Shown here: one piece after another, positions 4,302-61,659 of the stretch
Layout of the letters: each line of letters begins with the position of its first letter
Position numbering within the stretch: the first letter of the stretch is position 1
NCBI GenBank assembly: GCA_030654225.1
Contig: JAURXY010000003.1
Location: 16,056-80,055 of the forward strand
Direction of reading: 5' to 3'
DNA length: 64,000 nt
Origin: a bacterium
Lineage (GTDB): Bacteria; Patescibacteriota; Minisyncoccia; Moranbacterales; UBA2206
Position numbers and translations under genes: made by a program
The notes under the pieces: generated by a model
Database searches by the model: none
Seen by the model: only the letters and a program-made list of their open reading frames with translations
What the model was told of the DNA's origin: nothing

Positions 4302-5893
4302 GCCAAATAATAATCATATTAATCCAAGTCATTTTTATTTTAGCCGTAGCTCCGCTTGCTTCAGGCTTGGTGCGTTTTTTTAAGGCGCGTCTTCAAGGTA
4401 GAGATGGAGCTTCGCCTTTTTTACCGTACGTTACTTTGGCTACATTATTGCGCAAAGAAATGGTTATATCAGAGACTACCTCTTGGATTTTTAGGATAGT
4501 GCCTTTTGTAGTTTTTGGAAGCGTTCTTTTTCTGTCCGCTTTTATGCCACTTATTTTCAGAGGAATGAGCGTGCCTTTTTTTAGTGATTTTTTGGTTATT
4601 GCTGGAGTATTGGTGATCGGTTCAATTTTTTTAGTGTTGGGAGGCTTGGATGCCGGTAGTGCTTTTGGAGGAATGGGATCTAGTCGGGAAATGACAATTT
4701 CTGCTCTCATCGAACCGGTTATGATTTTAGTTTTTTCCGCCGTTAGTTTTTCAACTAAGGAATTTACAATTGATGGAATGTTGTCTAGCCAGACATTATT
4801 CCAACCATATTTAATATTGACCATAGTAGCTTTGATATTAGTGGCATTAGCAGAAAATGCTCGTTATCCGGTGGATAATCCCGCTACTCATCTTGAGCTC
4901 ACGATGGTGCATGAAGCGATGCTTTTGGAATATTCCGGAAAATATTTAGCCATACTCGAATATGCTTCTGCTATAAAGTTAGTTATTTTTTCTTTACTTA
5001 TCTCAAATTTTGTTTTTCCTTCCTTGCTTGTGGGAGCAGTTTCATGGAGCATAGGTTCTCTGATGACTATTTTATTTTTTAGTCTAATAAAAATCATCAT
5101 AGCTATGTTAGCACTGGCCTTTATTGAATCCGTTCTGGTTAAGATGCGATTTTACAGAATGTCAGAATATTTTTCCGTAGCTTTTGTGGTGGCTTTTCTT
5201 GGCATGGGCGCAACACTTATGTCCAAATTTACTAATATGGTTATAGAATATCATACTATGTTTTCGCTTTTTACGGTGGTGTGTATCGTGATTCTTTTTG
5301 GTCGAGTGCGTTTGAAAGCGATTTTGCGTTACTATGCCTTTTCTTCTTTAGCCATTGCCGGAATTGCTTGGGGACTAATTCCTTTAGTTTCCGAAACGGA
5401 AAAAATTCATCTATGGTTATTTGCAATTTTCACAATTATTACCAAGGCAATAGCAGTGCCGTATGTCATTAACCGTTCCAGCCATGTCAAAAAAAGTTTG
5501 ACAAACCTACCTTCATTTTTGCGTCCGGGAAAGAGCTATTTTTTAGCAGTTATTCTTTTGGTTATAACCTATTTTACTTTGGAAAATGTTTCTATTATAG
5601 GGCTGGCTAAATGGAGTTCATTGCTCTATTGCGCCGTCACTTTGATTGTTTTAGGCATAGCAATGATGATTATCAAGCGAAATATTTTTTCTCAGATTAT
5701 CGGTCTTCTGGTGATTGAAAATGGTATTGCAGTTTTTGTTTTGGCTACTGTTGGATCTCTTCCAATTACGATTGAATTTGGCATTTTTGCAGTAACTGTT
5801 GCTACGGCATATATTTTGGCTATATTAAGTGGGCAAATTAGTGATTTATATGGAAGCACCGACACGGAAGATTTACGAGAACTAGCTGAATAA
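4298..5893 (+). CDS. NuoH/HycD-like membrane subunit with C-terminal extension (possible NuoK/HyfE-like fusion)
   Basis: N-terminus RFFKARLQGRDGASPFLPYVTLATLLRKE and RYPVDNPATHLELTMVHEAMLLEYSGKYLAILEYA match the NuoH/HycD signature (E.EL..G...EYsG). It is about 200 aa longer than NuoH. ATGA overlap with the upstream gene. Confidence 0.6.
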   Translation: MSQIIIILIQVIFILAVAPLASGLVRFFKARLQGRDGASPFLPYVTLATLLRKEMVISETTSWIFRIVPFVVFGSVLFLSAFMPLIFRGMSVPFFSDFLVIAGVLVIGSIFLVLGGLDAGSAFGGMGSSREMTISALIEPVMILVFSAVSFSTKEFTIDGMLSSQTLFQPYLILTIVALILVALAENARYPVDNPATHLELTMVHEAMLLEYSGKYLAILEYASAIKLVIFSLLISNFVFPSLLVGAVSWSIGSLMTILFFSLIKIIIAMLALAFIESVLVKMRFYRMSEYFSVAFVVAFLGMGATLMSKFTNMVIEYHTMFSLFTVVCIVILFGRVRLKAILRYYAFSSLAIAGIAWGLIPLVSETEKIHLWLFAIFTIITKAIAVPYVINRSSHVKKSLTNLPSFLRPGKSYFLAVILLVITYFTLENVSIIGLAKWSSLLYCAVTLIVLGIAMMIIKRNIFSQIIGLLVIENGIAVFVLATVGSLPITIEFGIFAVTVATAYILAILSGQISDLYGSTDTEDLRELAE

Positions 5894-5917: not shown

Positions 5918-7399
5918 ATGAATCCAAATATTCTAATCATTCCATTTATACTAGCTTTCATTTTTTCGGTTGTTGCAAAAAATGAAAAAGTAGCGCGACT
6001 AAGCAATCTAGTATTTTCTTTGATTGGAGGATCGGCTTTGATTTTTTATGCAACGTCTTTTCTTATTTTCTCTCAAAATAAATTAATAAGTTCATGGTGG
6101 AGAATGGATGATTTTTCTGCTTTAATGGTAATTCTTATTGCAATTATTTATATCTTTTGCGTGATAATTAGTTTTCGCTATATCGGACATGAGTATGAGG
6201 AAAAAATTATCACCCTGTATCAGTATAAGTTATATTTTGCATTGTTTCAGCTATTTGCATTGTGTATGATTCTGGTTATTTTCACTAATAATTCGTTATT
6301 GCTTTGGTTGGCGCTGGAAGGAACAACTCTTTTCTCCACTTTTTTAGTTGGATTGTATCGTAAAAAAACCAGCATAGAAGCCGCTTGGAAATATATGATT
6401 CTTTGCTCGACTGGCATTAGTTTGGGTTTGGTGGGGATTTTGCTTTTGAGCTATGGCGCTCATGTCGGCGGAGTGGCGGAAGGTAATATTTTTTTATTAA
6501 ATCATCTGGCTGATAATGCCCAACTTATTCCAAAAAATATCATAAAATTAGCTTTCATATTTTTATTCATTGGCTTTGGAACAAAAGTTGGTTTGGCGCC
6601 AATGCATACTTGGCTTCCGGATGCTCACAGCAAGGCGCCATCTCCTATCTCGGCTATTTTTTCAGCAGTTCTTTTGAATGTTGCGCTCTATGCCATCCTA
6701 CGTTTTAAATTTATTACTGATAGTGCTTTTATGGATGCATCTTGGACGAATAATTTATTTTTGATTTTCGGTTTTTGCTCGGTGATTTTAGCGGCATTTA
6801 TGATGCTTATTCAAACAAACTATAAAAGGATGCTGGCCTATTCCAGTATCGAGCATATGGGAATAATTCTTTTTTCTCTGGGGCTTTCTCCGATTGGTGC
6901 GGTGGCTGGCGTGATGCATATGATTGGACACACCTTTGCCAAGTCGGCTTTGTTTTTTGGAGCAGGTGAAATTTTGATTCGATGGAAAACGACAAAAATT
7001 TCCAAGATAAAAAATATGTTCAAATATGCAAGATATACTAGCATTCTTTTTATCCTAGGAATCGTGGCAATTATTGCTATTCCGCCTTCAGCTTTGTTTG
7101 TGAGTGAATATGGTATGTTTGCTCAAGCAATTATTTTCCATCCGGTGGCGTCCCTCTTTTTGTTTATTGCTTTGAGTATTATTGCCTATGCTATGCTGTC
7201 TATTTCGATCAGAATGATTTTTGACACTGAAGAAGAAGTTTCAGAAAATAAGCTGGGAAAAGAAAAATGGAACATCACGCATACGATAATTGTTTTGGAA
7301 ATTTGCGTGTTGATATTTTTAGCCTTTTGGTTTACAACTGGAAACGCAATGGAGATAACTAATAATATAGTAAAAGATTTTTTATTTATTAAACAGTAG
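5918..7399 (+). CDS. NuoM/NuoN/MrpD-like antiporter-type membrane subunit
   Basis: 493 aa membrane protein carrying HTWLPDAHSKAPSPISAIFSAVLLNVALYAILRF, the Mrp/NuoLMN family motif. Confidence 0.75.
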   Translation: MNPNILIIPFILAFIFSVVAKNEKVARLSNLVFSLIGGSALIFYATSFLIFSQNKLISSWWRMDDFSALMVILIAIIYIFCVIISFRYIGHEYEEKIITLYQYKLYFALFQLFALCMILVIFTNNSLLLWLALEGTTLFSTFLVGLYRKKTSIEAAWKYMILCSTGISLGLVGILLLSYGAHVGGVAEGNIFLLNHLADNAQLIPKNIIKLAFIFLFIGFGTKVGLAPMHTWLPDAHSKAPSPISAIFSAVLLNVALYAILRFKFITDSAFMDASWTNNLFLIFGFCSVILAAFMMLIQTNYKRMLAYSSIEHMGIILFSLGLSPIGAVAGVMHMIGHTFAKSALFFGAGEILIRWKTTKISKIKNMFKYARYTSILFILGIVAIIAIPPSALFVSEYGMFAQAIIFHPVASLFLFIALSIIAYAMLSISIRMIFDTEEEVSENKLGKEKWNITHTIIVLEICVLIFLAFWFTTGNAMEITNNIVKDFLFIKQ

Positions 7400-7408
7400 T
7401 TTTATTTT

Positions 7409-8971
7409 ATGAATATTCAAGAAATTATTAAAACTTTTGCAGGAAAAATAACAGATGTAGTCGAAAAGAATGATTTGATATGCGCCAAAGTATCTCGCGA
7501 TGATTTGGCTGATATTTCGACTAAATTATTTCAAGAGTATAAGCTACCGCTATCTCTTCTTTTCGGTACAGATAATCGCAAGAAAAATGGAAATTTTGAA
7601 GTGCATGTTATTTTTAGTTTAGATGACGAACATAAATGGTTGAAAATTTCCGCTGAAGTGCCTGAAAGTGATCTGCAATATCCTTCGTTAACAAAAACGA
7701 TTATGGTGGCGCATTGGTATGAAAGGTATTTACGAGACATGTTTGGCGTTGTTCCTGTTGGACATCCGGACTTGCGAAGATTAGTGCATCATGAAAATAT
7801 TCCAGAAAATACGCATCCTTTACGCAAAGATTTTCAGTGGAATACAAAATTATCCAAAGATAATGTGTCATATCCGATGCATCATGTGACTGGTGAAGGA
7901 ATATTTGAAATTCCGGTTGGACCAATTCATGCGGGTATCATTGAGCCGGGACATTTTCGTTTTAATGTGGCCGGAGAAAGAATTCTAACCCTAGAAGGAA
8001 AATTGTTTTTTACTCATAAAGGAGTGGAGAAATTATTAGAAGGAAAAAATATTGATGAAGCCTTGCCTTTCATTGAAAGAATCTCGGGAGATATGAGTGC
8101 TTCACATTCTTTGGCATATGTGCAGGCGGTGGAAAAAATCAGCGGTTGTGTTGTGTCAAAAAGAGTGCAAATGCTTCGAGCGATTATCACTGAATGTGAG
8201 AGAATCACGATGCATATTCATGATTTGGCCAATATTGGAGGAATGGGAACGGGCTTTAGTTTTATCGCTGCCAATGGATTTCGCATTAAAGAAAGAATGA
8301 TGCGCTTGTCAGCGGATATTTGTGGTAATCGCTTTTGGCGAGGAATGATTGTTCCGGGAGGAATAAAAAGTGATATTAAAAAAGAAAATTTAGAAAAAAT
8401 ATTAGAAATATCACAAGAAGCTTGGAACGAAATAAACAAAATTACTACCGTTGCTTTGGATGACGAAGGCTTTTTGGATCGCTTGCAATATACCGGCGAA
8501 CTTCCCAAAGAAGCAGCCGAGGCTTTTGGCGCAGTCGGTTTTCCGGCACGTGCTTCTGAAATTAATCGAGATGTGCGTCGAGATCATCCATATGCTTCAT
8601 ATGCAGACTTTCCAATCAAGGTTATTACTAAGAAAAGTACTGATGTTTTTGCCCGCTATCGAATAAGGATAAAAGAAATTGAGCAATCAATAATTTTGCT
8701 CAAAACTTTGGTGGAAAAAATAGAGGAAGGAAGTGTTTTTGAAAAATGCGAAGTGAAAGACGGTTTTGCGATTGGCGCTGTTGAATCTTGGAGAGGTGAA
8801 ATTGTTTGCGCTTTGCAAATTAAAAATGGCGTGATTGAAAGATGCTATCCGCGCGACCCGTCTTTTTGTAATTGGGCGCTTTTCGGTATTATGGGTCCTG
8901 GTAATATCGTTCCTGATTTTCCACTCATCAATAAGAGTTTGAATCTGTCGTATTCGGGGAATGATTTGTAA
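7409..8971 (+). CDS. NuoC-NuoD fusion-like / [NiFe]-hydrogenase large-subunit-like protein lacking Ni-Fe ligand cysteines
   Basis: N-terminal NuoC-like region (WYERYLRDMFGV...GHPDLRRLV) and NuoD/HycE-like region (GPIHAGIIEPGHFRF...). The N-terminal RxCGxC and C-terminal DPCxxC Ni-Fe motifs are absent (C-terminus reads RDPSFCNWALF). Confidence 0.75.
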   Translation: MNIQEIIKTFAGKITDVVEKNDLICAKVSRDDLADISTKLFQEYKLPLSLLFGTDNRKKNGNFEVHVIFSLDDEHKWLKISAEVPESDLQYPSLTKTIMVAHWYERYLRDMFGVVPVGHPDLRRLVHHENIPENTHPLRKDFQWNTKLSKDNVSYPMHHVTGEGIFEIPVGPIHAGIIEPGHFRFNVAGERILTLEGKLFFTHKGVEKLLEGKNIDEALPFIERISGDMSASHSLAYVQAVEKISGCVVSKRVQMLRAIITECERITMHIHDLANIGGMGTGFSFIAANGFRIKERMMRLSADICGNRFWRGMIVPGGIKSDIKKENLEKILEISQEAWNEINKITTVALDDEGFLDRLQYTGELPKEAAEAFGAVGFPARASEINRDVRRDHPYASYADFPIKVITKKSTDVFARYRIRIKEIEQSIILLKTLVEKIEEGSVFEKCEVKDGFAIGAVESWRGEIVCALQIKNGVIERCYPRDPSFCNWALFGIMGPGNIVPDFPLINKSLNLSYSGNDL

Positions 8972-39809: not shown

Positions 39810-39890
39810 TTTTTAATTCACCCTGTTAAGTAATTTTTTATTAAAAAATTAATTTTGCAAAGCAAAATTTACTAAACAGGGTAAAAAAAT

Positions 39891-54142: not shown

Positions 54143-54166
54143 GAAATTTTATTTATGTATTTCTCA

Positions 54167-54200
54167 AAATACCCCCGACAAAGTCGGGGGTATTTTTTTG
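54167..54200 (+). terminator. Rho-independent terminator after the ribosomal operon
   Basis: Stem acccccgac/gtcgggggt with a 4-nt loop, followed by an 8-T run. Confidence 0.8.
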
Positions 54201-54416
54201 CTATAAAATTGATTTTAGAGTAAAATAAGAGATAGAAAATAAAAAAAGGCTCCTTAGGTACTAACACCTTTCGGATCCTTTTCGTCTTTATGCATAAAAT
54301 ATACACCCAAATCAGCGAAATGTCAACAGTATCAACTAAACCTATTCATAATACACTTATTTAGACTAAATATTCCACAAAATTTGCGAACACATCCTTT
54401 GGCTTATTAGGAAAAA

Positions 54417-54444
54417 GGGGGTAGAATGGAAGTGTTAAGTAATC
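54417..54444 (+). promoter_or_regulatory. Conserved ~28-bp element GGGGGTAGAATGGAAGTGTTAAGTAATC (copy 1)
   Basis: Nearly identical to 56000-56027. The GTTAAGTAA core also occurs at 56050-56060, 61331-61340 and 61343-61354. Confidence 0.6.
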
Positions 54445-54776
54445 TGATGAATTGCGTAATATAAATAATTCGGGGTGGTGGTGAATCAAAATTGAAAAAC
54501 ATTCTCAAAACCGTGAAAATGCACTAATTTTAACCACATTTTCACGATTATGTTGACAAAAACGTGAAATCTCTAGAAAAAGGCGTTTGGAAGATTGGGG
54601 TTGAAAATTAGAAAAAATCATAAAAAAGAAATTGAATTACAAGAAAAATTACCAGTTTTTGTGAAAAACTAAGCATAAATAAGCCATCTTAGCGGATAGT
54701 TTAAGCTACTTGACTAGTGTAAACAAAAATGATATATTAGTTTATGCTAGTATATTAGAGTAAACTAAATAACTTT

Positions 54777-55922
54777 ATGAAAAATATAATTGGAATAAAG
54801 AAAAAACACATAAAGGGATATAACTATCTTTCCCTTTTTTCTTTTCCTTCAAATGAGATAAGAAATGCTATTCCGAATTCGCTGATTCAAAAATCAAATC
54901 ATGCGCAATTTCTTTTAGGAAAACTTTCTGGAATTACAATATTACTCCCGGATGTCAATTATTTTATAAGCTCGTATGTCATGAAAGATGCGGCGTCTTC
55001 TTCTCAAATCGAAGGAACAAAAGCGACTATGATTGATGCTTTGGAATATGTTGCTGATTCGATGAGCGAAAGCGACACGGACGCAGACGATATTGCTCAT
55101 TATATACAGGCTTTAAATTATGGCCTAGACAGATTAAAGCAAGAAAATTTTCCTTTCACCCTTCGTTTTATAAGAGAGTTGCATGGCAAATTGATGCAAA
55201 AAGCGCGATCAACTCATTTTGCTGATCCTGGTGAATTTCGCAAGTCTCAAAATTGGATTGGCGGAACAAGACCTGATAATGCAAGTTTTGTGCCACCTGC
55301 TCCAGAAGAAATTGCCAGTGCACTTGGTGATCTTGAAAAGTTTATCCATTCTTCATTTGCCCATCCGGTCGTGGACGCTGGTTTATTGCATGCGCAATTT
55401 GAAACTATCCATCCATTTTTGGACGGCAATGGTCGCACAGGAAGGCTTTTGATTACTTTTTATCTAATTCATCATAAATATCTTGAGTTGCCGGCATTAT
55501 TTTTGTCGTCTTATTTTAAAAAATATCAAAAAGTTTATTATCAGAGACTTGGTAAATATCATAATGGCAATATTTTGCCATGGCTTGAATTTTTTACGGA
55601 TGCGGTAATTGAAACGGCAAATGAGGCAATAGAAATATCAAAAAAGGTGACGAAATTACGCGATCGAGATTTGATTATTATTTCAAGATTTAGCAAAAAA
55701 ACTTCAGATATTGCTGTAAAGGTTGTGCAGAGGTTATATAAAGATCCAATAGTTTCATCTACTACTATCCAAGAGTGGATTGGTCAAACAAAACCGGGTG
55801 CGCTTAAATTTATTGATAAACTTATTGAGTCGGATATTTTAGTGCTTCATCGCAAAGGAGAAGGAACACGTCCATCATTATATGCACATAAAGAATATCT
55901 AAAAATTTTTGCTGAAAAATAA
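54777..55922 (+). CDS. Fic/DOC family protein (long form with C-terminal wHTH-like region)
   Basis: Canonical FIC motif HPFLDGNGRTGRLL. 381 aa. Confidence 0.8.
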   Translation: MKNIIGIKKKHIKGYNYLSLFSFPSNEIRNAIPNSLIQKSNHAQFLLGKLSGITILLPDVNYFISSYVMKDAASSSQIEGTKATMIDALEYVADSMSESDTDADDIAHYIQALNYGLDRLKQENFPFTLRFIRELHGKLMQKARSTHFADPGEFRKSQNWIGGTRPDNASFVPPAPEEIASALGDLEKFIHSSFAHPVVDAGLLHAQFETIHPFLDGNGRTGRLLITFYLIHHKYLELPALFLSSYFKKYQKVYYQRLGKYHNGNILPWLEFFTDAVIETANEAIEISKKVTKLRDRDLIIISRFSKKTSDIAVKVVQRLYKDPIVSSTTIQEWIGQTKPGALKFIDKLIESDILVLHRKGEGTRPSLYAHKEYLKIFAEK

Positions 55923-55999
55923 TTGGATTTTAAAATTAGAAAATATCACAAAAAAAGAAAAAGCCCATCACGGGCTTTTTCTTTACGAAAGGGGGGATT

Positions 56000-56060
56000 G
56001 GGGGTAAGATATAAGTGTTAAGTAACCCGCCTCATCGGCGGACAAGCATGTTAAGTAACA
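56000..56060 (+). promoter_or_regulatory. Conserved element GGGGGTAAGATATAAGTGTTAAGTAACC (copy 2) plus a second GTTAAGTAACA
   Basis: Read directly. Lies upstream of the AbrB-like/MTase operon. Confidence 0.6.
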
Positions 56061-56078
56061 AAACTAAAAACAAATAAT

Positions 56079-56261
56079 ATGCCTACGCGAAAAATTGAGG
56101 AGAAAAATGTGAGGAAATTAACCCGCATGGGGAGAGCGGGAAGTAGTCTCGGGATGACCATCCCGAAAGAAATTGTCCAGGAACTTGGTTGGCGAGAACG
56201 TCAGAAAGTGGTTGTGAAAAAGTTGGGGAATAAATTAATCATTGAGGATTGGAAGAAATAA
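56079..56261 (+). CDS. AbrB/MazE/SpoVT-type swapped-hairpin DNA-binding protein (antitoxin/controller-like)
   Basis: 60 aa: RKLTRMGRAGSSLGMTIPKEIVQELGWRERQKVVVKKLGNKLIIE is the typical SpoVT-AbrB fold pattern. Directly upstream of the MTase. Confidence 0.55.
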   Translation: MPTRKIEEKNVRKLTRMGRAGSSLGMTIPKEIVQELGWRERQKVVVKKLGNKLIIEDWKK

Positions 56262-56270
56262 ATAAGAATT

Positions 56271-57494
56271 ATGGCGAACAGCAATCTTACAAACGCAAAA
56301 AAAGCCAAGAATGATGAGTTCTATACTCAATTTGGAGATATTCAAAAAGAGATTGAGGCATATTTGGAATATGACAAAAATGTATTCCGAAATAAAGTAG
56401 TATATTGCAACTGCGATGATCCGTTTGAAAGCAATTTCTTTCGCTATTTCGTGCTTAATTTCAACAAACTTGGATTGAAACAGCTTATCACAACTAGTTA
56501 TAAACCCTCGCCAGTAGCCAACACGCAACTAGCGCTATTTGGCGATGATAAAACTCTCACAAAATTAAAAGGCCGTCCAAAAATAAATGCTAACAAATTT
56601 ATTATCAACGAAGTGCACGACATAGATGGTGATGGAGAATTTAATTTGAAGGATATCGCTCAACAACTAAAAGATAACAAAAACAATGAATGGGAGCCAC
56701 TCATCGGCGACGGTGATTTTCGTAGCGATGAATGCTTGGATTTACTTAAAGCGTCAGACATTGTAGTAACGAATCCGCCCTTTAGTTTGTTTCGCGAATA
56801 CGTTAATCAACTTTTTGAGCACAACAAAAAACTTGTCATTATTGGAAATATGAATGCGATTACATATAAGGAAATTTTCCCCCTGATTAAAGCAAATAGA
56901 TTGTGGCTTGGAGCAACTGGAAATGGAAGTGATATGGTTTTTGCCGTACCAAGCGGTATTGAGATTGCAGAGAGTGACAGACAAAAGGCAGCTCGACTAG
57001 GTTATGTAGGTGATTATACAAGACTTGGAAACTCTTGCTGGTTTACAAATCTTGATCATGGTAGGCGTCATAGACCACTACCACTAATGACGGGGGCAGA
57101 TATTATAAAGTTCAGTGCAAAAAAACCGTTTGAAAAATACGACAATTATAATGCAATAGAAATTTCTTTTGTTAAAAATATCCCTAGTGATTATGATGGA
57201 GTGATGGGTGTGCCGATTAGTTTTCTTGATAAATATAATCCCGACCAGTTTGAAATTTTAGGAGCTACTCAAAGAGGTTGTCATAATGAGGTTCCTGACA
57301 CAAAAAAATATGATGATTACTGGGAAGTAAGACAGAGTGGCAAGAAAACAGGATCTTCTGGTGGGAAAACAAATGAAAATGCTAATTTAGTTGGGAATGA
57401 TGGGAAGAAGAATTATTTTATAAATAACGAAGGCCGAATAATTCAATCCGCTTATCAAAGAATTTTTATTAAACATAAGAAAGTCAAAAAATAA
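56271..57494 (+). CDS. N6-adenine (or N4-cytosine) DNA methyltransferase, gamma-class motif order
   Basis: EFYTQ (motif X-like), ...CDDPFESNFF (motif I-like), VVTNPPFSLF (motif IV, NPPF). Confidence 0.75.
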   Translation: MANSNLTNAKKAKNDEFYTQFGDIQKEIEAYLEYDKNVFRNKVVYCNCDDPFESNFFRYFVLNFNKLGLKQLITTSYKPSPVANTQLALFGDDKTLTKLKGRPKINANKFIINEVHDIDGDGEFNLKDIAQQLKDNKNNEWEPLIGDGDFRSDECLDLLKASDIVVTNPPFSLFREYVNQLFEHNKKLVIIGNMNAITYKEIFPLIKANRLWLGATGNGSDMVFAVPSGIEIAESDRQKAARLGYVGDYTRLGNSCWFTNLDHGRRHRPLPLMTGADIIKFSAKKPFEKYDNYNAIEISFVKNIPSDYDGVMGVPISFLDKYNPDQFEILGATQRGCHNEVPDTKKYDDYWEVRQSGKKTGSSGGKTNENANLVGNDGKKNYFINNEGRIIQSAYQRIFIKHKKVKK

Positions 57495-57496
57495 CT

Positions 57497-58363
57497 ATGA
57501 AAGAATTTTTTAAGAGTAGTTTGTTTTGGTTGTTGCCGTTGATTCTTTTTTTAATGGCATTATACAGAGAATGGGAAAATGATAACAACCTTGGAAAAGA
57601 AATTAGAAAAATTTTTTGTAACAAAAAGTTTAAAGGAAAAAAGGTTTCGATAAGACAGCCAGATATATTTCTTTATTATATCCTTCAACGTTCTTTAAAT
57701 TATTTATTCAGGGGAATTGTCCTTAGGCATATTTTAAATTATTATCTAGTGTTCCCTCTTACAATAATTTTTTCACTATTTTTATATTATCGATATGAAG
57801 TTGACGATCAGAGTTTGATATTGTTTATAACATTCATGTCTATACTTTGGTATTCCAAAGAAACTTTTGATTCCAGGCAAGAACAAAAAAATGCAAATAG
57901 AATTGCGAAAAAAGCAAATGAAATTGCAATTGGAAGACCCGTTCTATCAATTATAAAAAATTATGGTGATACGATTGAACTTAGAAATGATGGAACTAAT
58001 ATAGCTTACAATATTTGGATTAAATTTTATTATAAGGAAAGAGAAAATATTAAAAATGACAAGATTAAATTTCCAATTTTAGGTAGGGGACTATTTTACC
58101 GGATTGACATTAACAACGGAGCGTTTAATATTCTGTTGAGCGAAAATTCAAAAAAATTAATTGATTTAATAGATGGAGAAAAGAAAAATGAAAATGATCA
58201 GCTGATTCCAGATGAAAATTTAGGAGTGATTATTGAATATAGCGATTCCTCAAGTAAAGAAGGGAGACAGTATTTTGATTATTGGAAAGTAGATAAGGAT
58301 ATCTTATTGAGTCATAATGAAGGAAGATTTAGATTAGAGAAAATGAATATTGTAAATAAATAA
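57497..58363 (+). CDS. Hypothetical membrane protein, translationally coupled to the MTase
   Basis: 288 aa with 3-4 predicted TM helices in the N-terminal half. No motif. The start lies 3 bp after the MTase stop. Confidence 0.45.
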   Translation: MKEFFKSSLFWLLPLILFLMALYREWENDNNLGKEIRKIFCNKKFKGKKVSIRQPDIFLYYILQRSLNYLFRGIVLRHILNYYLVFPLTIIFSLFLYYRYEVDDQSLILFITFMSILWYSKETFDSRQEQKNANRIAKKANEIAIGRPVLSIIKNYGDTIELRNDGTNIAYNIWIKFYYKERENIKNDKIKFPILGRGLFYRIDINNGAFNILLSENSKKLIDLIDGEKKNENDQLIPDENLGVIIEYSDSSSKEGRQYFDYWKVDKDILLSHNEGRFRLEKMNIVNK

Positions 58364-58575
58364 AACCATGCGAAGTAAGTCTGAGATCTTGAACTAATTT
58401 ATTTTATGAATAAACAAGACAAAAACAACCATCTCAAACGGTGAGACTAAGATCGAAGTGCATGTTGAGTGTGAGACGATGTGGCAACTGTTCGGAAATT
58501 CCGAACAACTTAGCATAAAAAGATTTCTTACATACTGCCTAATATTCTAAAAATTATAAACTAACTAAAAAAAAT

Positions 58576-59745
58576 ATGAAAACAATTTTAAAAACCGACA
58601 TTACTGTCAAAGATATTTGCGAAGGATTTGTTTATAACGAACTTGAGGGCAAAGGACTTTTTGGTTTGTCTGGCAAATTAACCATTCAACCGGAATATCA
58701 GCGTAATTATATTTATGCCTCCGATGGTGGGAAAAGAGAAATTGCTGTTATCGAATCAATACTTAAGGGTTATCCAATAGGTTTGATTTATTTTAATGTG
58801 GTTTCTGAAAGTGGTCTGGAAGTTTTGGACGGGCAACAGCGCATCACTAGTCTCGGACGATTTTTGACTGATAAATTTGCAATCAAAGATGAAAATGGCA
58901 TGGAACAATATTTTTCAGGTCTTGCAAAAGATAAACAATCCAAAATATTAAAGACAACACTAACTATTTATGAATGTAAAGGCGAAGAAAGTGAGATAAA
59001 AGAATGGTTTCGAACGATTAATATTGCCGGTGTTCCGCTTAATAATCAAGAACTTCTCAATGCAGTTTATTCTGGTCCGTTTGTTACGCTTGGCAAAGAA
59101 GAATTTTCAAACAGCCAAAACGCCAATATTCAAAAATGGAGCGCTTATGTATCGGGTAGCGCCAACCGACAAGAATTTTTGGAATGCGCATTGGACTGGG
59201 TTAGTAAATGCAATATCGGCGATTATATGAGCAGTCATCGCAATGATAAAAATATTACTGAATTAAAAACCTATTTTAACAGTGTGATTGATTGGGTATC
59301 TAATGTATTTACTGATATTGAGAGCGAGATGAAAGGTATTGAATGGGGACGATTGTATGAGCAGTATCACAAGAAAGCTTATGATCCTGTTAAAGTGTCG
59401 GCAGAAGTGAAAAAACTTTACGGTGATCCGTATATCAAAAATCGAAAAGGTATTTTTGAATATATTCTCGGTGGATCCGTCAACACAAAATTACTTGAGG
59501 TTAGAATTTTTGATGAAGCAATTAAAAAAGCAGTTTATGTAACACAAACTACTAAAGCAGAGAAAAAAGGCAAATCAAATTGCTCGCATTGTGCTATTGG
59601 ACACGATGCTAACAAAAGCAAGATTTGGAAGCTAGATGAAATGGACGCCGATCATGTGGCGGCATGGAGCAAGGGTGGTGCGACTTCAATAAAAAACTGT
59701 GAAATGTTGTGTAAGACGCATAATAGAGCAAAGGGGAATCGGTAA
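58576..59745 (+). CDS. GmrSD-like type IV restriction endonuclease (DUF262 ParB-like NTPase + C-terminal HNH/DUF1524 nuclease)
   Basis: DGQQRITSL (DUF262 hallmark) and a C-terminal H-N-H pattern: [51 protein letters not shown]. Confidence 0.8.
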
Positions 59746-59776
59746 AAAACTAAAAGCGTAATTAATAAGCTTTGGA

Positions 59777-60286
59777 ATGAATAAAAATATGATAGATGAT
59801 AATCTAAAGCTAATAATAGAGAGTGTTTCTGATGAAAAGTTCAACGAAACTATATCTAAAGGAGCTTTAAAATTAAATGATAATCAAATTCAAACAGTGT
59901 CTTTTATTTTTTGGCTTTGTTATATGGCTGAAAATGATTTGAATGATGTGTTAAAACAGGCGTGGCAATTATCAACTGAAATAACGAATCCAGAAATTAG
60001 CGAGTCTGATCAAAAAATATTATTGAAAACATTTTCAAAAAAAGATAACTTTGACATTAATAATTTAGAATATTTTGCAGACAAAATAAAAATACACGAA
60101 GCAATGTGTGACGATAATCTTACAAAATTATTATGGAAATTAAATGAGCTAAGAAATGATATAAGTCATAATCGCATTAATAAGTTGGGATATAACGGCC
60201 AGAGCTTATTTTTAAGAGAAATAAAAGAAAAAATATTATTTGACTATTTTGAATTGTTTGAACATTATAAACCAATAAAATTATGA
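59777..60286 (+). CDS. HEPN-domain protein (Abi/Swt1-like, Rx4-6H)
   Basis: 169 aa all-alpha. LRNDISHNR matches the HEPN Rx4H motif near the C-terminal helix. Confidence 0.45.
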   Translation: MNKNMIDDNLKLIIESVSDEKFNETISKGALKLNDNQIQTVSFIFWLCYMAENDLNDVLKQAWQLSTEITNPEISESDQKILLKTFSKKDNFDINNLEYFADKIKIHEAMCDDNLTKLLWKLNELRNDISHNRINKLGYNGQSLFLREIKEKILFDYFELFEHYKPIKL

Positions 60287-60343
60287 TTTCACTGCTTCCT
60301 TCATATCTTTCGCTTCGATATGAAAGCGAAGTAAGAAAATAAC

Positions 60344-61201
60344 ATGAAAAATTATCGTCTTGCCATTGATGGTGATCGTTATGAGCAATACTATTGGAGT
60401 TTATTTATTCAAAACAATTTTCAAAGCTATGAGGATTTTTGGATAGAGAATATTGTTCTGCTAACCAATCGACCGCAAGATATTCATTTCAAAACTGATC
60501 AGGAATTAGCAAAAATTGGAAAAACAGACAACGATATTTGCATTGCTCAACTTCATTATTCAATTTTGAGGCATTTGGCTCGAGCGTTTGATATTTGGAA
60601 CAAGGACCGTGTTGATCTTGACGATTTGACTGACGGGATGACTCGATTGTGTGGTGCACTTGATGTCACGTTTGAATTATTGGAAAGATTTGAAAACCCT
60701 TCTAATTATGATTCTTGGCTTGCAAGAAAAAATAATGGCAATCTAGGTGGTGAAGATGCTCGAAAGAATTGGAAAGAAAAATATCCTGAAAATATAAAAT
60801 TAATTAGATATTATAGAAATCATCTTGTTCACGGGAGGATGACGCCTGGAATAATAGAACATATTTTTTATTTTCCAAAAATAAGTATGGAAGAGAAATA
60901 TTTTGATTGGAGAGAAATAACTTTCAAAAATGAAATGGAAAAAAATAAAAATAATTTTATGTCGGCAAAAGAAATTTTGGAATTGGCGTGGCATGAAGTG
61001 GTTGACTATCTTGATAACCAATGGAGAATTCACTTGTTAAAACAGGAAAATCCTGATAAGGATATAGACAAATCAAATCTTATTTCAAAGAAGACTGCTA
61101 GTGGCGTATGGTCTAAAGGCACAAAAGTTTTCAATACATCTGCAACGCAACTTAGTGGCTCAGTGTATGAAACAGGCAAGGACGAAAAAATAATTTTTTA
61201 A
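60344..61201 (+). CDS. Hypothetical protein, possible second HEPN-like protein
   Basis: 285 aa. YYRNHLVHGR contains an Rx4H pattern. No other motif. Confidence 0.35.
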   Translation: MKNYRLAIDGDRYEQYYWSLFIQNNFQSYEDFWIENIVLLTNRPQDIHFKTDQELAKIGKTDNDICIAQLHYSILRHLARAFDIWNKDRVDLDDLTDGMTRLCGALDVTFELLERFENPSNYDSWLARKNNGNLGGEDARKNWKEKYPENIKLIRYYRNHLVHGRMTPGIIEHIFYFPKISMEEKYFDWREITFKNEMEKNKNNFMSAKEILELAWHEVVDYLDNQWRIHLLKQENPDKDIDKSNLISKKTASGVWSKGTKVFNTSATQLSGSVYETGKDEKIIF

Positions 61202-61534
61202 TCGCTTTATTACATCTTTGGTTTGAGAGTGATTTGTTTTCGGGGTATAATAGAAAAAAGAGGTCAACTACATTTTTGAATAAATGGGGTCAGGTACCTT
61301 TTTCAGAAATAAATTTAAGAAATAATTTTTGTTAAGTAATATGTTAAGTAACACTTTTTTCAAAGGAATCTTAATAAAACTAAAAACTAAAGAAATAAAA
61401 ACGATCTATAGTCAAAAATTGGTGGACTTGGAGGAACTCAAAAAATCAGCACCTAGGAAGGTTTTTTCGGGGGAGCTATAAAACGCTTTATATCAAGCAC
61501 TATTTTGACAGTGTGCACAGGCAGTGTGCAGATA

Positions 61535-61564
61535 TTGACAACTATGCACAAAAAATGGTAAAAT
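61535..61564 (+). promoter_or_regulatory. Promoter-like TTGACA-N18-TGgTAAAAT with flanking TGTGCA(C/T)A repeats
   Basis: TTGACA at 61535-61540, extended -10 tggtaaaat at 61556-61564. Four TGTGCANA-type repeats lie between 61513 and 61575. Confidence 0.35.
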
Positions 61565-61602
61565 TTGTGCATAATAAAAAATATCTACACAATAAGACGA
61601 TA

Positions 61603-61636
61603 TTTCAGAAACAAAAAAAGACGGAAATTAATCCGT
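61603..61636. terminator. Bidirectional intrinsic terminator (serves rpmE on the minus strand)
   Basis: Stem agacgga/tccgtct with an A-run upstream and a T-run downstream. rpmE ends at 61660. Confidence 0.65.
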
Positions 61637-61659
61637 CTTTTTTGCTATAAAAAGCTATA

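Follow-up and report, generated by a model that had tools for sequence, protein, structure and literature searches.

The stretch of about 7 kb that separates the ribosomal protein gene rpsI from rpmE on contig JAURXY010000003.1, from a bacterium of the Patescibacteriota (Moranbacterales, UBA2206), raises the question of whether the DNA N6-methyltransferase (MTase) encoded there, hereafter M, belongs to a restriction-modification (R-M) system, and what part is played by the membrane protein of 288 amino acids (aa) whose gene follows it. All coordinates are positions of the 64-kb window, that is, the whole stretch of 64,000 nucleotides analysed. The original prediction, made from the sequence of this stretch, had described a defence-like island in which no cognate restriction endonuclease could be recognised for M, and in which the protein with DUF262 and HNH domains encoded 3' of the membrane-protein gene, hereafter R, was a GmrSD-like type IV enzyme. 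The island was scanned with Pfam, PADLOC, NCBIfam and PHROGs, and relatives of R were gathered in a scan of one genome per species which gave at least 590 of them, genetic linkage being counted in the best 80. From these analyses the island is probably a composite defence locus: at its centre stands a type II-like R-M operon (AbrB regulator, M, cargo gene and R), with a Fic gene upstream and two HEPN-type genes downstream.

The evidence for a partner of M comes from R itself and from its genomic neighbourhood. M, which matches PADLOC MTase_II at 1.5e-104, was correctly described as a gamma-class NPPF DNA methyltransferase, as its full-length EcoRI_methylase match and the position of its NPPF motif confirm (Table 1). 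R matches the PADLOC model REase_II (PDLC03418) at 2e-79 over profile positions 4-371 of 372. A gene for an EcoRI-family MTase lies upstream of R on the same strand in 72 of the 80 genome loci, often with a gap of 0-12 nt, and most of the eight loci without it have less than 1.5 kb of upstream sequence. The same M-R pair is present on 30 of 33 IMG/VR viral contigs and on plasmids of Enterococcus faecium, Moraxella osloensis (9-kb) and Arthrobacter, a plasmid neighbour of R being annotated as 'adenine-specific methyltransferase EcoRI family protein', and it is found in a minimal form in candidate division Kazan, where the MTase gene and that of a 389-aa R homologue are 4 bp apart. Among the cultured carriers are Enterococcus faecium with pBN83-1 (WP_214330490 and WP_214330488), Moraxella osloensis NBRC 115781 with plasmid pSKB0120-6, and Arthrobacter/Pseudarthrobacter. 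The linkage in genomes, viral contigs and plasmids, together with the REase_II match, speaks against the claim that M has no cognate endonuclease, and R is accordingly proposed as the putative restriction endonuclease of M in a type II-like R-M system.

Regarding the domain content of R, the DUF262 (ParB-like NTPase) and HNH domains of the original prediction were both recovered, whereas the assignment to type IV did not survive. The GmrSD family is defined by DUF262 together with a DUF1524 domain carrying the EHxxP motif (PMC11322646, PMC12707154); R was searched for both DUF1524 and EHxxP, neither is present and a classic HNH domain stands in their place, and R therefore fails a defining GmrSD feature. 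The LDGQQR sequence at residues 84-89 (DGQQR at 85-89) is retained, and because of this motif R is possibly dependent on nucleoside triphosphates (NTP). With R linked to an MTase and not of the GmrSD type, the supposedly unusual pairing of a modification-dependent endonuclease with an MTase falls away.

R is also strongly conserved. The 120 best-matching protein clusters show 84-94% identity to R of the window over all 389 residues, and in the top 80 species loci, which span Patescibacteria, Omnitrophota, Proteobacteria, Bacteroidota, Chloroflexota, Planctomycetota and Firmicutes, R is 80-94% identical. The four-fold degenerate sites of R are identical at a fraction of 0.30-0.55, with the exception of one close relative (L016; loci are designated here by L numbers). 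By the Nei-Gojobori method on 30 loci, the median nonsynonymous divergence (dN) of R is 0.11 with a saturated synonymous divergence (dS) of 2.0, as compared with a median dN of 0.25 and a dS of 1.9, saturated as well, for its partner M. In 96 of 99 loci (L016-L095 and L176-L208, where M is 42-88% identical) the conservation of R exceeds that of M, a comparison that is biased in favour of R by the choice of these loci on the similarity of R. These values indicate strong purifying selection on R, above that on M, which is uncommon for a restriction nuclease. More divergent versions of R are encoded in L001 and L012 (36-38% identity) and on plasmids (61-69%).

The second question is that of the membrane protein encoded between M and R. 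Its gene had been said to overlap that of M; this is not so, the ATG at 57497 being separated by a 2-nt spacer from the end of the MTase stop codon at 57494. The protein is predicted to possess about three transmembrane (TM) helices, one long helix and, at its C-terminus, a beta-sandwich that would face the cytoplasm. No match to the protein was found in Pfam, PADLOC, NCBIfam, PHROGs or the PDB sequences, and its family counts only 12 members among 5.8 billion proteins, all of them on Patescibacteria-type or metagenomic contigs; it is the sole component of the island without known relatives. A viral origin of the family was considered and rejected, no relative being present in IMG/VR.

The family nevertheless has a recurrent genomic setting, the membrane gene being inside R-M operons of types I, II and III in six of seven independent contexts. 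The type II operons have the order AbrB-M-TM-R in the window (TM denoting the membrane gene), M-TM-RhuM-R in L001 and HTH-252aa-M-TM-R in L012, where HTH stands for a helix-turn-helix protein. In type III systems the order is Mod-TM-152aa-199aa-Res in L002-L004 and Mod-TM-OLD-175aa-Res in L013, and the type I operon of L015 reads hsdM-DUF3800-TM-hsdS; in the seventh context, L014, no R-M system is present and the membrane gene lies beside a serine hydrolase gene. The membrane gene directly follows the MTase gene in five of the six R-M contexts, the DUF3800 gene standing between the two in L015. Small AbrB/MazE-like open reading frames (ORFs) were found in four of the seven contexts versus about one in 85 R-M loci without the membrane gene; those of L001, L002/L003 and L014 (and that of L009) are 51-59% identical to the AbrB-like protein of the window, and they stand at different places with respect to the membrane gene. 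The homologues inside R-M operons of three types strengthen the earlier proposal of the multi-TM protein as a new-effector candidate, and it is plausibly a new effector embedded in R-M operons.

A protein of 153 aa encoded in the M-R gap of L094 (4684-5145) has one N-terminal TM helix and a strand motif, 'FYIRNVGTDIALG', resembling 'IELRNDGTNIAYN' of the window protein. This protein was rejected as a homologue of the membrane protein, the hhalign probability being 1.4% with only the 'RNxGxxIA' motif aligning.

The place of the membrane gene, between M and R, is occupied by other genes elsewhere. This R-M family has about 22 loci in which extra genes separate M from R (L001, L010, L016, L019, L027-29, L034, L039, L041, L043, L053, L055, L066, L067, L070, L071, L084, L086, L091, L093 and L094). 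By Pfam, this cargo comprises RhuM in eight loci, Bro-N in three and Fic in three (L055, L066 and L084), and further MUG113/T5orf172, an OLD-like ATPase-TOPRIM protein, PIN_8, an AbiU2-like HEPN protein and AntA. A SMODS-Cap15 pair of the cyclic-oligonucleotide-based anti-phage signalling system (CBASS) was also found (Cap15 in L084), as were a ParB-like protein with a D12 MTase and a C5 MTase with a GHKL ATPase. Other ORFs in the gap belong to no family, for example those of 386 aa in L010, 202 aa in L034, 201 aa in L055, 189 aa in L039 and 331 aa in L091. Many of the identified cargo genes are autonomous defence or toxin genes, and the gap is a general landing site or hotspot for them. Because so many of its occupants are of this kind, the membrane protein is most simply read as a further piece of self-contained cargo. 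It would then most likely act on its own at the membrane, as an abortive-infection or toxin effector expressed together with the R-M genes.

Several observations weigh against this picture of the locus and have to be set beside it before the alternatives are judged. In L009 (R at 7001-8170) and L026 (R at 4454-5620, with 4.4 kb upstream), nucleases 84-92% identical to R of the window have no EcoRI-family MTase gene in the upstream sequence at hand, and in L009 the genes of an AAA_21 ATPase and of a 190-aa ORF precede the nuclease gene in place of it; the MTase may be elsewhere in these genomes, or these may be solitary nucleases. No paper on a characterised type II enzyme of the DUF262-HNH kind turned up in the literature search, a PDB search returned no relative of R, and an analysis of avoided palindromes, in the window and in host loci pooled to 858 kb, gave no clear adenine-containing candidate for the recognition site. 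The membrane family is small, with one of its contexts (L014) outside R-M, its predicted structure displays a generic Ig-like domain and no functional clue, and the HEPN assignments discussed below are all under curated thresholds. R might alternatively be a modification-dependent GmrSD-like type IV enzyme, with M either an orphan or part of a new methylation-linked module with the membrane protein. This would agree with the GmrSD_N match and the DGQQR NTPase motif of its N-terminus, with the two loci devoid of an adjacent MTase gene and with the characterised DUF262 nucleases (GmrSD, BrxU, SspE and EF_B0059), which are modification-dependent or stand-alone. The C-terminus of R, on the other hand, is a classic HNH domain without DUF1524 or EHxxP, its REase_II match is full length and its linkage to the MTase is near-obligate and often translationally coupled across phyla, viral contigs and plasmids; a modification-dependent nuclease in tight coupling with an active MTase would be toxic to its own cell, unless its target is another modification. 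It is consequently very unlikely that R is a type IV enzyme, with M an orphan or tied to the membrane protein.

For the membrane protein, a role as a guard in the style of PrrC can be opposed to that of an autonomous effector: it would be kept inactive by contact with the MTase or the R-M complex, and phage anti-restriction would release it to permeabilise the membrane, resulting in abortive infection. The precedent of PrrC with EcoprrI (PMC3710099) speaks for such a role, as do the 2-nt spacer in the window, the position immediately downstream of the MTase gene in five of the seven contexts and the presence of the family in types I-III, while the beta-sandwich, predicted to be cytoplasmic, could touch the partner. 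The partner MTases, however, are EcoRI-like, type III Mod and HsdM proteins, and because these come from unrelated families a common contact surface is unlikely and a guard role becomes less likely; the same slot elsewhere holds autonomous systems (CBASS, OLD and PIN), the L014 member is outside any R-M locus and the sample is small, so that a guard appears unlikely here. The same low standing is given to the wider proposal that the 288-aa family would be portable guards of type I, II and III systems, killing or arresting the cell upon anti-restriction, and that R would, independently of this, be an NTP-dependent type II nuclease under unusually strong constraint. The membrane protein might also be no defence effector at all, but a protein that tethers the R-M enzymes to the membrane or modulates them (for instance by placing restriction where DNA enters), a selfish post-segregational toxin or a hitch-hiker. 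Its lack of similarity to known defence families and its generic Ig-like domain are compatible with this, and the frequency of AbrB/MazE-like genes in its contexts hints at a toxin-antitoxin-like or regulatory link. The AbrB-like genes vary in their placement with respect to the membrane gene, however, the slot is otherwise mostly filled by defence or toxin genes and the family is absent from IMG/VR contigs, and these roles are considered improbable. An autonomous effector carried as cargo is thus retained as the most likely function of the membrane protein.

In the palindrome analysis, the most under-represented 4-mers of the window were ACGT and GGCC, with observed/expected ratios of 0.42 and 0.60, and the same two were lowest in the 858-kb pool. 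Their scarcity may be the mark of other R-M systems encoded by the genomes concerned.

The features of the island are collected in Table 1. All seven predicted ORFs were found in place, on the + strand, between the rpsI terminator and the minus-strand rpmE terminator, and their domains, as identified with Pfam, PADLOC, NCBIfam and PHROGs, uphold the description of the island as a defence-type accessory locus. The island is a composite locus of this type, real but fairly ordinary, and its GC content and base composition do not depart strikingly from those of its flanks, so that it is not clearly foreign. The long non-coding stretch reported after the rpsI terminator is likewise present; it holds no + strand ORF of at least 60 aa, no tRNA and no Rfam match, and a search for tRNA and Rfam elements across the island found none.

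Table 1. Features of the island between rpsI and rpmE, in positions of the 64-kb window.
Feature	Position	Strand	Basis or content
rpsI intrinsic terminator, left island boundary	54166-54196	+	14-bp GC-rich stem, then T run
Non-coding leader	54197-54776	+	promoter-like sites 54399-54427 and 54710-54738; one TGTTAAGTAA copy 54433-54442
Repeat D2	54417-54442 matching 56000-56025		
Repeat D8	54594-54627 matching 55922-55955		
SoFic-like class II Fic AMP-transferase	54777-55922	+	Pfam Fic and Fic_N
Bidirectional hairpin terminator after fic	55954-55984	.	14-pair stem between A run and T run
Two TGTTAAGTAA(C) copies, 33 bp apart, directly 5' of AbrB gene	56016-56058	+	motif count
AbrB/SpoVT/MazE-fold protein, 60 aa	56079-56261	+	PF04014, 5e-08
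N6-MTase (M), gamma-class, EcoRI family	56271-57494	+	PF13651 EcoRI_methylase full length, 1.9e-124; NPPF at residues 168-171
288-aa membrane protein, cargo between M and R	57497-58363	+	hydrophobic peaks and charge distribution fit three TM segments
Palindrome TGTTCGGAA-A-TTCCGAACA, perfect 9+1+9	58489-58507	.	in 212-nt spacer 5' of nuclease gene, read from sequence
DUF262 (ParB-like NTPase) + HNH nuclease (R)	58576-59745	+	Pfam GmrSD_N, 1.6e-20; HNH PF01844
169-aa solo HEPN-like protein, putative RNase	59777-60286	+	RNDISH at residues 126-131
285-aa solo protein of putative HEPN fold, putative RNase, with disordered C-terminal tail	60344-61201	+	RNHLVH at residues 158-163
Right-hand non-coding region	61202-61643	.	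strong promoter-like site 61223-61251; two tandem TGTTAAGTAA copies 61330-61351
rpmE terminator, right island boundary	61614-61643	minus	

At the head of the R-M operon, the 60-aa protein of AbrB/MazE fold was confirmed by its PF04014 match, its gene ending 9 nt before the start of M. In L001 an AbrB homologue, 51% identical, precedes the MTase gene by 30 nt, and in L010, L012, L030, L062, L073 and L085 the same slot is filled by Xre-type HTH (HTH_3) proteins. Because of this homologue, of its position before M and of the HTH proteins that replace it elsewhere, the AbrB protein is read as the putative controller of the R-M operon, although its fold departs from the Xre HTH that is canonical for such controllers. 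Six copies of the 10-mer TGTTAAGTAA are present in the window versus 0.15 expected, every copy being on the + strand and non-coding; five copies are in the non-coding DNA of the island (starts at 54433, 56016, 56049, 61330 and 61342) and one starts at 39824. Its core, GTTA-AG-TAAC, is a small palindrome, and for this reason the 10-mer is proposed as a candidate operator of the AbrB controller. Several of the copies coincide with the starts of mini-ORFs beginning M-L-S-N, for example at 56014-56076 and 61329-61481. The longer palindrome in the spacer 5' of the nuclease gene may be a further regulatory site, and since no T run follows it, it is likelier a protein-binding site than a terminator.

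The protein encoded upstream of this operon had rightly been called a Fic protein, as its Fic and Fic_N domains confirm. It has the inhibitory motif SSQIEG at residues 75-80 and an intact active site, HPFLDGNGRTGR, at residues 212-223, in agreement with the HxFx(D/E)GNGRxxR motif and the inhibitory helix (S/T)xxxE(G/N) of class II Fic proteins. It matches PADLOC SoFic at 1.5e-99 (331.8 bits) over nearly its full length, and SoFic is also its best PDB match (7e-24), whereas its score of 125.8 bits against the NCBIfam equivalog NF046030 is below the cut-off of 550; these scores suggest a SoFic-like homologue and not a protein of equivalog level. It resembles SoFic of Shewanella oneidensis, a single-gene entry in PADLOC and DefenseFinder, by its class, its N-terminal inhibitory helix and its intact Fic motif, and differs from it by this lower score and by a defence role that is putative only. 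The fic gene appears to be its own transcription unit, with the promoter-like site at 54710-54738 before it and a hairpin after it. In L055 and L066 the M-R gap holds genes for homologues of this Fic protein, of 49% identity. AbrB was considered as an antitoxin of Fic and rejected, a terminator separating the two genes and the order being toxin-first; this role is also disfavoured by L001, where AbrB and M occur without Fic, and by the inhibitory helix that Fic itself possesses. Two segments (26-34 nt, 85% identity) are common to the leader 5' of fic and to the fic-abrB spacer, in swapped order, and may be the trace of a fic insertion or duplicated promoter/leader DNA.

Downstream of R, the two Rx4H proteins of the predicted HEPN pair are present, with the motifs RNDISH and RNHLVH, and they do not form a pair. 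They were rejected as paralogues, hhalign giving 10% with only the Rx4H helix aligned, and a conserved two-gene HEPN module was also rejected, the 285-aa family having no relative of the 169-aa protein beside it in 80 other contexts. In the 169-aa family (77 representative homologues) E52, R126 and H131 are invariant (R126/H131 in 58 sequences), and weak, sub-threshold matches were obtained to HEPN_Apea (14 of 58) and to the RiboL-PSP, Abi_2, Csx1, Csm6 and Cas13 HEPN models. The 285-aa family has 144 homologues, typically of about 234 aa and without a Pfam family, in which Y157, R158 and H163 are invariant (R158/H163 in 120 sequences), and the structure model of the window protein is confident, with a predicted local distance difference test (pLDDT) of 86 and a predicted template modelling score (pTM) of 0.81. 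Both proteins are plausibly HEPN RNases. Another R-M operon, with a D12 MTase, RE_AlwI and PDDEXK_5, has as its last gene the closest homologue of the 285-aa protein (73% identity), and an MTase could be recognised in six of 80 other loci of the family, most of which are short; the link of the 285-aa family to R-M is occasional and not obligate.

As for the position of the island, an exact look-up of RpsI and RpmE returned no related contigs on record, so no synteny comparison with close relatives was available. The same R-M family was found just 3' of rplM-rpsI, with different companion genes, in two distant Patescibacteria genomes whose RpsI is 48-54% identical (L029, 253-7170, and L079, 214-7164). 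The order after rplM-rpsI is RadC, NYN, M, PIN_8, R and Schlafen-like in L029 and Fic, ThiF-like, M and R in L079, a Fic gene being again directly after rpsI in the latter, as in the window. These two loci argue against a conserved core block and for a variable hotspot that recurs after rpsI; defence genes would repeatedly settle where the ribosomal-protein/rpoA cluster ends. In other settings the R-M pair adjoins serine recombinases (L005 and L012) or is carried on plasmids.

In the mechanism proposed for the locus, the AbrB-fold regulator, first in the operon, would probably regulate its own expression through repeated GTTAAGTAAC sites, of which two copies are upstream. M would mark the host DNA with N6-methyladenine (m6A) and R would cut incoming unmethylated DNA, while the three-TM protein in the M-R gap would act at the membrane as an abortive-infection or toxin effector. 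Defence would in this manner be layered, acting on DNA via R-M, on protein via the separately transcribed Fic and on RNA via the HEPN putative RNases. R-M operons with embedded Fic/Doc, RhuM and HEPN genes have been described as multilayer defence by Anantharaman et al. 2013 (PMC3710099).

Compared with a classical type II R-M system having an EcoRI-family m6A MTase and a controller, the locus shares the full-length MTase match, the co-oriented regulator, M and R genes and the small DNA-binding protein heading the operon. It differs in that R is a DUF262 ParB-like NTPase with HNH, possibly needing NTP, and not a PD-(D/E)XK enzyme as is R.EcoRI, in that the regulator has the AbrB fold in place of an Xre-type HTH, and in that a cargo gene splits M and R. 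R resembles GmrSD, BrxU and SspE (DUF262 with DUF1524) by its N-terminal DUF262 with DGQQR and a C-terminal His-Me finger nuclease, and is unlike them in its HNH domain PF01844, without DUF1524 or EHxxP, in its coupling to an MTase and in the prediction that modification would block it. The toxin-type genes in or beside the R-M operon (Fic and HEPN, and RhuM in sister loci) recall EcoprrI-PrrC and the R-M neighbourhoods with HEPN and Fic/Doc/RhuM (PMC3710099), whereas the host system of the window is type II and not type Ic, and the embedded membrane protein has no ABC-ATPase or HEPN domain. With Cap15 of CBASS, a small TM effector found in the same M-R slot in L084, the membrane protein has in common N-terminal TM helices and a C-terminal beta-rich soluble domain; it has no detectable sequence similarity or specific structural similarity to Cap15, and no signal-generating partner is encoded near it.

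Since layered R-M neighbourhoods are already known, current concepts are unchanged by this locus and its overall layout is a known one; what remains of interest is the rare membrane family tied to three R-M types, which is the one new element, the DUF262-HNH restriction family and the cargo slot between M and R. Proteins of the 389-aa DUF262-HNH type should not automatically be filed as type IV (GmrSD or McrA-like), as several source annotations do. They are the apparent R subunit of a very widespread R-M family, with at least 590 species representatives ranging from Patescibacteria to Proteobacteria, Bacteroidota, Chloroflexota and plasmids of Firmicutes. The M-R gap of this family provides a compact and easily searched site for finding new defence genes, and the membrane protein, whose rare family is present in all three classes of R-M operon, whether ATP-dependent or ATP-independent, may represent a new accessory effector.

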